Below the pieces are notes generated by a model. The model was not told the origin of the DNA, made no database searches, and worked only from the letters and a program-made list of their open reading frames with translations. This document shows, piece after piece, positions 3,262 through 49,715 of a stretch of 64,000 bases of DNA (its first letter is position 1; each line of letters starts with the position of its first letter). A program made the translations under genes and the position numbers. The stretch comes from Thermoanaerobaculia bacterium (lineage in GTDB: Bacteria; Acidobacteriota; Thermoanaerobaculia; Gp7-AA8): the NCBI GenBank assembly GCA_035629865.1, contig DASPHC010000146.1, forward strand, positions 53,420 to 117,419. Reading direction: 5' to 3'.

Positions 3262-5553
3262 CTACGGGAGTTGCGCGAGGATGCTGTCGTAGTGGCGGGC
3301 GAGCTCCGGATGACCGCGGTCGTTCAGAATCTGCAAGAGCTCGCGGACCGTCTTCGCGAGTGGCAGGTAGCCGGCGTCGAGCGTCCCGGTCAGAGCCTGG
3401 TTGAACTGCGTCGCGGCGTCAAACGGGTCGCCGGTTCGTGCGGCCTGCAGCGCCGCCTGGAGGCGCAGCCGGTGCGTCTGCTCGTGGTCGGGACCGAGCT
3501 CGCGCTCCGCGATCGCGAGCGCGCGTGCGATGTGTGCGGCGGCCTCGTCGAAGCGGCCGAGCTCCGTCAGCACGGCGCATGCGTTGGCGAGCGTGCGAAT
3601 GAGCTTCGCGTTGTCCGGACCATAATGTTTCTCCTGGATTGCGAGCGCGGCCTCGATCTCATTCGCGGCGGACGCGAAATCTCCCATCCGCTCGAACGCC
3701 ATCGCGATGTTGTTCTTCGTCACACCGAGGTATTTCTCCACGTCCAGCTTCCGGAAGAGCGCCTCCGCTTCACGCAGCAGCGGGAGCCCTTCCGCGGGGC
3801 GGCCCGCTTCCGCGTAGGCGTTGCCGAGGTTGCTGAGGTCCAGAGCGACGACGGCGTGGACGTCGCCGTACGTGCGGCGATCGACGTCGATCTTCTCCTG
3901 AAAGACCGCGATGGCATCCTCGATGTCGCCAGCCTGGCCGCGCAGGATGGCGACGTTCGCCCGCAGGGTCACGAGCGCCGGATCGCTCTCTCCCCGGAAG
4001 CGAACCATCCACCGCGCGGCGGCGTCGAACGCGGCGGCCGCAGCATCGAGGTCGCCGCGATGGCGCAGGTACATCGCGGCGCGATTCAGCAGAGGTCCGG
4101 CGTCGTCGTTGACGGCTCCCTCCTCTTCGGCGAGGCGGCACGCGGCGCGGCCGTGCGGCAGGATCCGCGCGGCCGTATGCCACTCGCGGGAATCCTCAGG
4201 ACTCATGGGGAACGCGAGGTTCACGGCGGCACATGCTTTCCGTGTCGCGTGCGCCCGCTCGTCCGCCGGCATCTGGTCGCGAATGACGAGCTGCACGAGC
4301 TTGTGAATGGCGACCGCGCGTTCGTCCGCGCGGATCAGCGAGTACGCGCGTGCCGCGGCAATGGCTCTGTTCACCGCCAGCTTGCCTTCGCTGTCGTTCA
4401 GCAGCGACCGCGGGATGTCGTCGGGCGCGACGAACGCGCAGAGCATCAACGGCTGTGCCACGTCGCGGATGTTGTCGATCGACAGCTTCCACGTCGCGGC
4501 AATCGTACTTTTGGTGTCGTGCCGCACGGTGCGGAAGGATTCGAGATAGTCGGCAATCGAGGACGCCGTTCGCTCGACGTACGCGGCCGCGTGTTCGAGC
4601 GCGAGAGGAAGATCGCCGAGGTCGTGCGCGAGCTCGTCCGCAGCCTCAGCATTGGTTGCGCCGCTGCGCGCGAGAAACAACTTCACCGCGTCGCTGCGCG
4701 GAAGCACGCCGACGGGAAGGGGTGTGCCCGCGCCGGGCTTCGGCGGATTGGGAGTGGTCACGATGACGTGTCCCGGCGCGCCGTCGGGAAGATACGGCAT
4801 GACGTCCGCCGGATCGTCAGCATCATCGAAGATGAGGAGCCAGCCGGGCGTGGCGGCGAGATGGTTCTTCACCGCCTCGACGATGGCGTTCTGGTCCGCC
4901 CAGTCTCGTTCCTCGAGCGCGCGCTCATCTGCGAGCATCGCGTAATCGGAGGCGAGGGTCGACGGGTCGTCCGCCCGGATCCACCAGATGGTCGAGTACT
5001 CGTGCGCGTGGCGGTGCGCGTATTCGATCGCGATCGAGGACTTGCCGGCGCCGTCCAGCCCGACAAGCACCGGCACTCGCTTGTGCGCGAACGCTTCGCC
5101 GAGTTGTACGAGCACGTCCTCGCGTCCGGTGAAATGGGTGTTGCGCGGCTGCAGGTTCGAGACCCGCCACACTTCGGCGAAGGCGCGCGGCAGATGGTCG
5201 TCGACGTCGGGCCACATCACGACCTGGTGCCGCGCGAAAGGACGCGTACGCCAGTCACAGGCGTCGTCGAGGATGATTGGGATCACGCGAGTCCGCTCGC
5301 CCGCCATCGCGGCCTCGGTTTCGAGCGTGCAGAAATCCGAGTCGAGGAAATCCTTGCTGACCAGCAGCAGCGCGAAATCCGATGCCCGGATCTGCAGGAG
5401 GATCTCAGGATGGTACTGCTCGCCGGCCACGAGCTCCCGGTCGTGCCACATCGAGAGCCTGCCGTTGATTTCGAACGGGCGCAGACGTTCGAGCAGTTCA
5501 TCCTTGCGCTGTTCGTCTTCACGTGCGTACGACACGAAGACGTTGAGGGGCAT
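3262..5553 (-). CDS. TIR-NB-ARC(STAND NTPase)-TPR protein
   Basis: The N-terminal TIR domain begins MPLNVFVSYAREDE and carries an SDFCTLE motif compatible with the catalytic Glu of NADase-type TIR domains. The P-loop is GLDGAGKS, with a hhhhDD Walker-B at LLIFDDADD. The C-terminal 300 aa are TPR-like repeats of the LGNAYAEAGRPAEGLPLLREAEALF type. Confidence 0.85.
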   Translation of the reverse strand: MPLNVFVSYAREDEQRKDELLERLRPFEINGRLSMWHDRELVAGEQYHPEILLQIRASDFALLLVSKDFLDSDFCTLETEAAMAGERTRVIPIILDDACDWRTRPFARHQVVMWPDVDDHLPRAFAEVWRVSNLQPRNTHFTGREDVLVQLGEAFAHKRVPVLVGLDGAGKSSIAIEYAHRHAHEYSTIWWIRADDPSTLASDYAMLADERALEERDWADQNAIVEAVKNHLAATPGWLLIFDDADDPADVMPYLPDGAPGHVIVTTPNPPKPGAGTPLPVGVLPRSDAVKLFLARSGATNAEAADELAHDLGDLPLALEHAAAYVERTASSIADYLESFRTVRHDTKSTIAATWKLSIDNIRDVAQPLMLCAFVAPDDIPRSLLNDSEGKLAVNRAIAAARAYSLIRADERAVAIHKLVQLVIRDQMPADERAHATRKACAAVNLAFPMSPEDSREWHTAARILPHGRAACRLAEEEGAVNDDAGPLLNRAAMYLRHRGDLDAAAAAFDAAARWMVRFRGESDPALVTLRANVAILRGQAGDIEDAIAVFQEKIDVDRRTYGDVHAVVALDLSNLGNAYAEAGRPAEGLPLLREAEALFRKLDVEKYLGVTKNNIAMAFERMGDFASAANEIEAALAIQEKHYGPDNAKLIRTLANACAVLTELGRFDEAAAHIARALAIAERELGPDHEQTHRLRLQAALQAARTGDPFDAATQFNQALTGTLDAGYLPLAKTVRELLQILNDRGHPELARHYDSILAQLP

Positions 5554-5562
5554 GCCGCGATT

Positions 5563-6032
5563 CTACACGGTCATCACGAGTCACCTTCACCCTTGGATGA
5601 CGACCGCCTTCAGGCGCACACGAACCGCCGTCACCTTGATAACGACCGCCATCAGGCTCATCACGAATCACCTTCATCCTTGATAACGACCGCCTTCCGG
5701 CTCGCAACGACGTCCTTCCGGTTCGCAACGACCTCCGTCGGGTTCAATACGACTGTCCTTCCGGCGCGCAACGACGTCCTTCAGGTTCAATACGACTGTC
5801 CTTCCGGTTCGCAACGACCTCTATCAGGTTCAATACGACTGTCCTTCCGGTTCGCAACGACCTCTATCAGATTCAATACGACTGTCCTTCCGGTTCGCAA
5901 CGACCTCTATCAGGTTCAATACGACTGTCCTTCATCGTCGATAGCCACTTCCTTCGCCGTCGATGGTCATCTCCATCGTCCTTGATAGCTGCCTCTATCG
6001 TCCTTGATAGCTGCCTCTATCAACCGTTGCCC
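5563..6032. repeat. Array of about 20 head-to-tail degenerate 21-22-bp repeats, such as gcaacgacctctatcaggttc and aatacgactgtccttccggttc, in the TIR-gene upstream region
   Basis: Direct reading shows the units abut without unique spacers. The 21-22-bp period is not a multiple of 3. The last five or six copies are near-identical and earlier copies are more diverged. Confidence 0.8.
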
Positions 6033-22690: not shown

Positions 22691-22889
22691 TTGCTGCCGT
22701 AGGCAGCAAAAGACCTGTAGGCCCGGCCTTCAGGCCGGGTACGACAATCGCCCGCCAGGCGAGTCCGCGGAGCGGGCGACAGAAAAGACCTTCTCTCGTC
22801 TGTCGCCCGCTACGCGGGCTCGAGGATCCGTTCACGGCTTACCCGGCCTGAAGGCCGGGTCTACAGATCTTTAGCTGCCTATGGCAGCA
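22691..22889. repeat. Family-2 nested palindromic element (roughly 200 bp), copy 1
   Basis: Outer arms are ctgccgtaggcagcaaaagacctgtaggcccggccttcaggccggg and its complement. The inner hairpin is gagtccgcggagcgggcgacag...ctgtcgcccgctacgcgggctc. It lies between convergent genes. Confidence 0.75.
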
Positions 22890-22939
22890 GCGAGCGTGGT
22901 TGGCGTTGGTCTTCTGAACGCGTCTCGTGTAGCGCTGCG

Positions 22940-23245
22940 TCAGCGCTCGTACTCTTGGCTGCTGCGCGGCGCGTCCGGCGCCTGCCGGTCCAGCGACTCG
23001 CGGTAGCGCAGGCAGCCGCGCAGAAACTGCGGCCACTCCGGCACGACCGGCACCGGATCGGTCTTCTCCGGCAGCAGTCCCCACAGCGCCGGATGATGCC
23101 AGCAGAGCCCCTGCCCGGTACTGTCGCGATGCTGCCGGATGCCGTCGCGCAGCCGGCGCACTTCGGAGAGCAGCTCCTCGCGGGACATCTGGTCGAGGTC
23201 GGCGTCGATCACTTCGTCTCCTGTGGTTCCGTCACGACGATTCAC
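22940..23245 (-). CDS. Hypothetical protein
   Basis: A 101-aa charged ORF. No motif assigned. Confidence 0.35.
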   Translation of the reverse strand: MNRRDGTTGDEVIDADLDQMSREELLSEVRRLRDGIRQHRDSTGQGLCWHHPALWGLLPEKTDPVPVVPEWPQFLRGCLRYRESLDRQAPDAPRSSQEYER

Positions 23246-23645
23246 GGATCACGAAATCGCCGCCGGGAGATGCCGCTTTCAAAAGCGCGTCCAGCTTATC
23301 TACCGTCGGAACGGCATCACCGCGCTCGTATCGCGCATAGGCGTTGCGTGAAGACGTTCCGAGGCGTTCGGCCACGTCGCGGAGCGATGAGCCACTCGCC
23401 TCGCGCCGTCTCCTGAGGAGCAGCGCAGTCATGGCAGCGGCATCGCTCCCGGAGATTTCAAACTCGCTCTTGCTGCGGGCGTGAACCTGCGCGCTGAAAC
23501 CGTCGCGGCCGACCATGGTCTCCAGCCAGTCGCCGATCATTTCCAGTGCTTCCTTACGGGTACGGCCCTGGGTGATCGCATCGAGCAGAGGAATCTCCGC
23601 CAGCCAGAACCGCCCGTCGCGTGCCACCTTGCCCTCGAATCTCAT
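23232..23645 (-). CDS. hicB: HicB-family antitoxin (RNase-H-like N-domain plus C-terminal HTH)
   Basis: MRFEGKVARDGRFWLAEIPLLDAITQGRTRKEALEMIGDWLE matches the HicB N-terminal pattern. The C-terminal HTH is SLRDVAERLGTSSRNAYARYERG. I trimmed the start to the internal ATG that overlaps the hicA stop. Confidence 0.65.
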   Translation of the reverse strand: MRFEGKVARDGRFWLAEIPLLDAITQGRTRKEALEMIGDWLETMVGRDGFSAQVHARSKSEFEISGSDAAAMTALLLRRRREASGSSLRDVAERLGTSSRNAYARYERGDAVPTVDKLDALLKAASPGGDFVIRESS

Positions 23646-23821
23646 GTCGCCTCCCTGCAGGCACGGCGGAGAATCGCTTGCGCAAGCCGTTCGTTGATCT
23701 CGCGATGCCGAGGGACCGCTTCCTCGCTGCCGCCGTCGGTCCAGACATCGTGCCTGCCGCCGCTCCGGAGGAACCACCAACCACAGGCGGTCAGCCGTTT
23801 CTCCAGGTCGCGCCGCTTCAC
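23642..23821 (-). CDS. hicA: HicA-family mRNA-interferase toxin (not in the ORF track)
   Basis: Hand translation from GTG 23821 gives VKRRDLEKRLTACGWWFLRSGGRHDVWTDGGSEEAVPRHREINERLAQAILRRACREAT. This fits the HicA K.L...GW...R.GSH....P....V.VP.H pattern. The TGA stop overlaps the hicB ATG (ATGA). Confidence 0.6.
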   Translation of the reverse strand: MKRRDLEKRLTACGWWFLRSGGRHDVWTDGGSEEAVPRHREINERLAQAILRRACREAT

Positions 23822-23905
23822 TCAGCTACTGTACACCGATCCGTGGACGGAGTGTAAAGGGGCCGCGCCGCCGTAGAATCAACTGAGACAAGCGGGAGGA
23901 CGACG

Positions 23906-24265
23906 ATGATCAACGGTGCGCACGTCATCATCTACAGCACGAACGCCGAGGCCGACCGCGTGTTTCTGCGCGACGTCCTCGCCCTGCCGAATGTCGATGC
24001 CGGGGAAGGTTGGCTGATCTTCGGCCTGCCGCCTTCGGAGGTGGCTGTCCATCCGGGAGCGGAGAACGACTCACACGAGCTGTACTTCATGTGCGAGAAC
24101 GTGGAGCAGTTCGTCGGGCGGATGAAAGAACACAGCGTTGAATGCGGCGAAGTGCATGACCACGGCTGGGGCTTGCTGGCTCAGGTGACGTTGCCCGGCG
24201 GCGGGAAGCTCGGGGTTTATCAGCCGCGGCATGCGCGGCCGACGTCGGCCCGCGCCTCTCTGTGA
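23906..24265 (+). CDS. Small VOC/glyoxalase-like protein
   Basis: A 119-aa single VOC-type domain. Confidence 0.55.
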   Translation: MINGAHVIIYSTNAEADRVFLRDVLALPNVDAGEGWLIFGLPPSEVAVHPGAENDSHELYFMCENVEQFVGRMKEHSVECGEVHDHGWGLLAQVTLPGGGKLGVYQPRHARPTSARASL

Positions 24266-24274
24266 GACCACGCC

Positions 24275-24436
24275 CCTCCCTGTCATCCTGAGCCGCAGGC
24301 CTGATCCCATAAGCAGCATCCATGGCGGCGAAGGACCCCCTCCGGCTGCACGCGACGCGTTCAACTGCGGGGGGTCCTTCGCCGCCATGCTTTTGCCACG
24401 AAGGACCATTCCTGCGGCTCAGGATGACAGGAGGGA
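24275..24436. repeat. Family-3 nested hairpin element, copy 1
   Basis: Outer stem is cctgtcatcctgagccgcagg paired with cctgcggctcaggatgacagg. Inner stem is catggcggcgaaggaccccctcc paired with ggggggtccttcgccgccatg. It lies between convergent genes. Confidence 0.75.
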
Positions 24437-28932: not shown

Positions 28933-28980
28933 GACCACCTTCGCGAGCCGCGCTGCTCGCAAACGTTCGTTGAAGTCGCG

Positions 28981-29055
28981 GGCCCGTAGCTCAGTGGTAG
29001 AGCACCTGGCTTTTAACCAGAGGGTCGTAGGTTCGATCCCTACCGGGCTCACCAG
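28981..29055 (+). tRNA. tRNA-Lys (anticodon UUU)
   Basis: Cloverleaf by hand. Acceptor stem GGGCCCG/CGGGCTC, anticodon loop CUUUUAA, T-loop TTCGATC, 3' CCA. Confidence 0.9.
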
Positions 29056-29084
29056 CCCGCCCCCGCACGCATGCACCAGTCACG

Positions 29085-29160
<76 letters not shown>

Positions 29161-49545: not shown

Positions 49546-49715
49546 CCCCTTTCCTGTCATCCTGAGCCGCAGGATTGATCCGATGGGTAGCAAGCATGGC
49601 GGCGAAGGACCCCCTCCAACAGAGCGAGCAGCGTTCAACTGGAGGGGGGTCCTTCGCCGCCATGCTTTTGGCATGTGGGAGTCATTTTTACGGCTCAGGA
49701 TGACAGGAAGGGGGG
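49546..49715. repeat. Family-3 nested hairpin element, copy 2
   Basis: Same outer and inner stems as copy 1. It lies between convergent genes. Confidence 0.75.

Follow-up and report, generated by a model that had tools for sequence, protein, structure and literature searches.

The hicAB locus on the minus strand at positions 23232-23821 of the window (the whole 64,000-nucleotide stretch of DNA that was analysed), located on the chromosome of an uncultured member of the Thermoanaerobaculia (Acidobacteriota), is in all likelihood (probability about 0.9) a classical two-gene type II toxin-antitoxin operon of the hicAB family, belonging to 'Class 3' of Gerdes 2024. In this class, the toxin gene comes first and the antitoxin carries a C-terminal helix-turn-helix (HTH); this is the 'classical' arrangement, which includes the system of E. 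coli K-12 (PMC10865869). The initial annotation had proposed a hicA-hicB pair at this place, and the proposal is borne out for the toxin by Pfam and fold, and for the antitoxin by fold, HTH and context. The pair is an ordinary representative of the classical HTH-type class, and its toxin gene is already annotated in GenBank. The refinements made here are limited to the name of the antitoxin and to the layout of operator and translation signals in one clade, and they matter little beyond annotation hygiene: with an ORF cut-off of 60 aa a real toxin gene stays hidden, and first-start calling over-extends the antitoxin by 45 codons.

The toxin gene hicA (23642..23821, minus strand) encodes 59 aa from a GTG start to a TGA stop, and is recognised as an ORF, by Pfam and by fold. 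A GTG-initiated HicA-like frame of this length had been described from hand translation, and it was found without frameshift or internal stop; its absence from the ORF track, also reported at that time, is real and has a trivial reason, since the default cut-off of the ORF tool is 60 aa and hicA is one residue shorter. The Pfam profile PF07927 (HicA_toxin) matches residues 4-54 over profile positions 2-56 of 58, with 31.2 bits for a gathering cut-off of 27, so that neither of the two findings named beforehand as arguing against the toxin (a lack of HicA-family matches or a frameshift) was seen in the 59-aa ORF. The NCBIfam scan and the PADLOC defence-system models returned no match for HicA, and phmmer against the PDB, as a single-sequence search, gave a marginal HicA match (E 0.85). 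A database search recovered 245 homologues at E <= 1e-3, many of them named HicA by NCBI or JGI; the best match is an identical 59-aa protein on a 222-kb contig of a Thermoanaerobaculia MAG (HYI12495.1), whose name in GenBank is 'type II toxin-antitoxin system HicA family toxin'. Exact-sequence contig look-ups of HicA (P0001) and of P0242 returned no record, and no second hicAB copy was found in the 64-kb window. When hicA is compared with 33 equal-length orthologues, median pS is 0.68, pN 0.16 and pN/pS 0.22, which places the frame under purifying selection; the median pN/pS of hicB is 0.23, and both genes are thus under purifying selection. The position of the start codon is common to the orthologues, which use GTG (29), ATG (12) or TTG (1).

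The predicted structure of the toxin agrees with this assignment. The AlphaFold model of HicA (pLDDT 86.9) has an alpha-beta3-alpha topology, composed of a first helix (residues 3-12), three strands (16-20, 24-28 and 33-37) and a second helix (44-55), and the top seven PDB matches of this model in Foldseek are all HicA toxins, with TM values of 0.59-0.73; they include Y. pestis 4p78_C, S. pneumoniae 5yrz_B, B. pseudomallei 6g26 and 4c26, E. coli 6hpb_A and T. thermophilus 1whz. The predicted catalytic histidine is His24 (codon CAC, 23750..23752, minus strand), in the motif G21-G22-R23-H24. It comes after a glycine, where strand 2 begins, and is aligned with the histidine of the GSH motif in 5yrz_B, which corresponds to His36 if that chain carries an expression tag of 21 residues. 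In S. pneumoniae, His36 has been validated for both catalysis and toxicity, and the equivalent catalytic histidines are EcHis23, BpsHis24, YpHis28 and StpHis36 (PMC11594946). Across 23 aligned homologues, with identities as low as 57%, fourteen residues are invariant, namely K2, R4, L6, G14, W15, G21 and H24, followed by D25, G30, R38, E41, N43, E44 and I50. According to both model and alignment, the HicA of the window thus has the HicA fold and keeps the catalytic histidine.

The antitoxin gene hicB (23232..23645, minus strand) encodes 137 aa from an ATG start. The two genes overlap by four nucleotides, ATGA (23642..23645, minus strand; tcat on the plus strand), in which the TGA stop of hicA covers 23644-23642 and the ATG of hicB 23645-23643, as the initial annotation had noted. 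Its further claim, that the track shows an N-terminally over-extended hicB, also proved correct: the mechanical ORF (23232..23780, minus strand) has 182 aa, begins with a TTG 45 codons 5' of the conserved ATG, and overlaps hicA in another frame, because the ORF tool takes the earliest start available after a stop. HicB homologues are 137-138 aa long and share an invariant MRFEG N-terminus, which sets the start of hicB at the ATG of 23645 and marks the 182-aa form as an over-extension. Could the 59-aa ORF still be a chance product of a GC-rich genome, and the 182-aa TTG ORF the real gene? The window is indeed GC-rich and contains many long spurious ORFs on both strands, and the small hicA gene was missed by several gene callers in four related loci (L001, L003, L004 and L006). 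However, the homologues of the long ORF all begin at the internal ATG, and its 45-codon extension lies in another frame over a HicA that is conserved by Pfam match, fold and pN/pS, so that this explanation deserves practically no credence. The 59-aa ORF is more than a chance ORF: it is a HicA toxin.

Recognition of the antitoxin follows a different route, as its sequence is captured by HTH models only. Pfam detects HTH_31 (40.4 bits, cut-off 27) and HTH_3 (39.6 bits, cut-off 23) over residues 75-124, PADLOC models give generic HTH matches only, and residues 1-70 have no Pfam or NCBIfam match. Curated HicB models (PF15919, PF05534 and NCBIfam) do not match the HicB of the window at E <= 0.1, and a single-sequence phmmer search of the PDB returned no HicB match; the HMM check suggested in the initial annotation therefore held for HicA_toxin and failed for HicB. 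An exhaustive HMMER search collected 829 representative relatives of HicB at E <= 1e-3, of which 69 diverse ones were aligned. Among these 69, HTH_31 or HTH_3 models match 67, and PF15919 (HicB_lk_antitox) weakly matches 3 (best E 3.4e-4). The profile built from the 69 relatives matches the HicB-like TTHA1756 (2yzt) at E 0.004 and, weakly, E. coli HicB (6hpb_B) at E 0.93, in both cases through the N-terminal region. Many HicB homologues are named 'RNase H-like HicB family nuclease' by JGI.

At the level of structure, the AlphaFold model of HicB (pLDDT 97.3) combines an N-terminal domain of three strands, a helix and two more strands (residues ~1-67; 23445..23645, minus strand), which has the partial RNase H-like fold of HicB, with a C-terminal XRE-type HTH of four helices (residues ~69-125; 23271..23441, minus strand). 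Its three best PDB matches in Foldseek are full-length E. coli HicB structures (6u0i and 6hpb), aligned over 141 columns with probability 1.0. In the antitoxin, an N-domain of HicB fold is thus joined to an XRE HTH, the former being the predicted HicA-binding and neutralising domain, the latter the domain for DNA binding and probably also for dimerisation. The gene also lies immediately 3' of hicA in what reads as one operon. Since no curated HicB sequence model matches (these models being a means of detection and not a structural definition), membership in the HicB group is claimed here by fold and context, and not as membership in a Pfam family. The identical protein in GenBank (HYI12494.1) is named only 'helix-turn-helix domain-containing protein', a name that could be sharpened to HicB family antitoxin.

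Among characterised systems, E. coli K-12 HicAB (6hpb/6hpc, 6u0i) is one of the closest. It has the same gene order, hicA then hicB, and the chains solved are of nearly the same size (138 residues for HicB and 57 for HicA, compared with 137 and 59 aa in the window). E. coli HicA has an alpha-beta3-alpha fold with catalytic His23 (PMC11594946), to which the HicA of the window is alike with H24, and E. coli HicB, with its N-terminal HicB fold followed by a C-terminal XRE HTH, is the best full-length structural match for the antitoxin, although the structural alignments show low identity (HicA 30%, HicB 18%). The regulatory regions differ: E. coli uses two promoters, with the operator hicO at P2, and P2 yields the antitoxin only (PMC11594946), whereas the window has a single conserved dyad, over a -10-like hexamer that directly precedes the start of the toxin. 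The ATGA overlap and the uncultured Acidobacteriota host are further differences. The best Foldseek match of the HicA model is Y. pestis HicA3-HicB3 (4p78; E 3.5e-3, TM 0.71), for which one promoter 5' of hicA has been described, with the main operator BS2 over the -10 box (PMC11594946); the operator layout proposed for the window resembles that of BS2 in PhicA3. In contrast, B. pseudomallei HicAB (6g26, 6g1c, 6g1n) has a different type of DNA-binding domain, and matches through the N-domain only, over ~60 residues, with 14-17% sequence identity.

A scan of species-representative genomes produced 80 related loci, or 81 when the window is counted. Most of the 80 belong to Thermoanaerobaculia or Acidobacteriota MAGs, and a few to Binatia, Latescibacterota, Gammaproteobacteria, Clostridia, Omnitrophota, Nitrospinia and others, with two or three hicAB-related copies in some genomes. 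An intact hicA lies directly 5' of hicB in 53 of the 81 loci. Three loci (L002, L005 and L007) repeat the arrangement (HicA of 59 aa, HicB of 138 aa, 4-nt overlap) among unrelated neighbours, and hicAB recurs as a unit while its genomic surroundings change. The possibility that the pair of the window lies in a mobile element or a defence island was considered and rejected: the neighbours are of housekeeping type (an M13 peptidase, a PLP-dependent decarboxylase and an alpha/beta hydrolase), and a tblastn search with HicB against 72,556 plasmids and 50,697 phage records gave no match.

By the criteria used, the other 28 loci are devoid of an intact hicA: in 12 no HicA ORF is detected, and in 16 the matches are weak or fragmented; some of these 28 cases could be due to assembly errors or divergent genes. 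In two of them (L015, at ~1971-2000, and L024), the deletion of hicA is clean, and hicB directly follows the dyad and -10-like element as an orphan antitoxin. Because about a third of the related loci have lost an intact hicA, the activity of any single copy is not to be assumed. The pair in the window might accordingly be imagined as a decaying or silent relic, with intact-looking genes, a toxin that is unexpressed or inactive, and a HicB that acts mainly as an orphan XRE-type repressor, a view to which these losses lend some weight, together with the one consensus mismatch in the operator of the window and the GTG start of a hicA that has no Shine-Dalgarno (SD) motif. However, the hicA of the window is full length and its family HMM score of 125 bits is the highest among all loci, every invariant residue including H24 is kept in a family with a pN/pS of ~0.22, and a GTG start without SD is the norm of the family and not a lesion. 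Decay is thus improbable here, and an intact toxin-antitoxin operon is the preferred reading.

Which signals could control such an operon? Directly upstream of hicA, a putative HicB operator (23831..23848, minus strand) is formed by the dyad GTCCAC-GGATCG-GTGTAC. In the aligned upstream regions of the family the dyad has the consensus NACAC-N6-GTGTAC, with a right arm running into a -10-like hexamer, and the copy in the window shows one left-arm mismatch (GTCCAC vs GTACAC). The strict motif occurs at a fixed position before hicA in 54 of the 81 loci. In 325 kb of flanks, there was no dyad match away from this fixed site among those listed matches that were inspected, the extra minus-strand matches being the same palindromes read backwards; the only other match in the 64-kb window is an unrelated 1-mismatch site at 4579-4594. 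The -10-like hexamer of the window, TACAGT (23828..23833, minus strand), overlaps the right arm of the dyad and lies 6 nt 5' of the GTG start. Its counterparts in related loci are TACACT (36), TACAAT (4) and TACAGT (4), and the gap between hexamer and start is 6-9 nt in 35 of 42 loci. A weak -35-like element, TTACAC (23852..23857, minus strand), may be placed 18 nt 5' of the -10-like hexamer. At this position, most Thermoanaerobaculia loci have GGAAT, and relatives outside Thermoanaerobaculia have TTGAC-like -35 hexamers with a spacing of 17-18 nt. A scan of 22700-24400 for generic sigma-70 promoters and intrinsic terminators called none, so that the promoter assignment rests on conservation across loci; no second promoter was detected at the hicAB of the window.

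The translation signals of the two genes are unequal. A GGGAGG Shine-Dalgarno motif for hicB (23650..23655, minus strand) is located within the 3' end of hicA and separated from the ATG by 4 nt, and the hicA of the window has no such motif; among 47 related loci, an SD-like motif precedes hicB in 38 and hicA in 1. The 4-nt ATGA overlap, present in 31 of the 42 related loci with clean starts, suggests translational coupling.

By analogy with the family, free HicA would act as a ribosome-independent RNase that arrests growth, until the N-domain of HicB binds it and masks the face bearing the active-site histidine. HicB would dimerise via its HTH domains, and HicB2 or HicA2B2 would bind the operator through the paired HTH domains. 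These steps have been established for the HicAB systems of E. coli, Y. pestis, B. pseudomallei and S. pneumoniae (PMC11594946, PMC10865869). As the dyad overlaps the -10-like hexamer, binding of HicB to NACAC-N6-GTGTAC would repress the operon, and sequence conservation at this site suggests such an autorepression. In addition, the GTG start, without SD and only 6 nt after the -10-like hexamer, suggests that the toxin message is weakly translated and possibly leaderless or nearly so, while the antitoxin, with its ATG, GGGAGG motif and ATGA coupling, would be translated efficiently; weak signals for the toxin and strong ones for the antitoxin would together keep the antitoxin in excess. More generally, toxins of this Thermoanaerobaculia-centred hicAB clade may be made from leaderless or near-leaderless, mostly GTG-initiated mRNAs, with a -10 element that is at the same time one half of the HicB operator, a proposal drawn from comparison of upstream regions that we regard as tentative and give slightly less than even odds. 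If true, the translation of the toxin would be held below that of the antitoxin in a hard-wired manner with one promoter, unlike in E. coli, where hicAB relies on two; the word 'leaderless' does not occur in the review PMC11594946. The operator/-10 layout, and the frequent loss of hicA with hicB kept, are modest and testable details of one clade within a well-studied family.

Downstream, a 90-aa gene (22940-23212, minus strand; HYI12493.1, hypothetical in GenBank) begins 19 nt 3' of hicB, which raises the question of whether it could be a functional third component of the module. It lies on the same strand, with no predicted terminator in the 19-nt gap, and co-transcription would be plausible in this genome. 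Yet its family amounts to 7156 matches at E <= 1e-3, compared with 1277 for HicB, and its relatives are found in unrelated neighbourhoods without hicAB, which places the gene outside the toxin-antitoxin module; in L002, hicAB is followed by a radical SAM gene on the opposite strand, and in L005 by a ribbon-helix-helix antitoxin-like gene. A three-gene system is therefore very improbable, and the two-gene operon remains the favoured reading. Many members of the 90-aa family are ~80% identical, all are hypothetical and without Pfam domain, and the protein of the window contains the stretch CWHHPALWGLLPE.

The gene that follows hicAB in L005 occupies 5435-5695, directly 3' of hicB, and the next ~60 nt contain the apparent truncated start of a MazF/PemK-like toxin; the two, identified by eye, would be a second, decayed toxin-antitoxin module beside hicAB.

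On the other side of the operon, a gene of 119 aa (23906-24265, plus strand) is divergent from hicA, and its product has a sub-threshold Glyoxalase_2 match only (E 0.07), with no match in NCBIfam. As both genes share an intergenic region of 84 bp, the promoter of the 119-aa gene must overlap the promoter/operator region of hicA. Beyond this gene, ~450 bp from the hicAB promoter, lies one of two copies (24278-24432 and 49552-49708) of a ~155-bp palindromic, long-hairpin intergenic repeat, with termini CCTGTCATCCTGAGCCGCAGG ... CCTGCGGCTCAGGATGACAGG and inner arms CATGGCGGCGAAGGACCCCCTCC / GGGGGGTCCTTCGCCGCCATG. It looks like a REP- or MITE-like element. The 12-mer GTCATCCTGAGC occurs 7 times at <=1 mismatch, vs 0.5 expected.

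Short GC-rich hairpins, cccggcctgaaggccggg and gctgcctatggcagc, are found at 22800-22900, between the converging genes for the alpha/beta hydrolase and the 90-aa protein; these intergenic hairpins are possible terminators that lack a T-tract, and the terminator scan left them uncalled. An Rfam scan of the whole window identified two tRNAs only, far from hicAB, which are arranged in tandem on the plus strand ~5 kb from the locus, tRNA-Lys(ttt) at 28980-29054 and tRNA-Glu(ttc) at 29084-29159.
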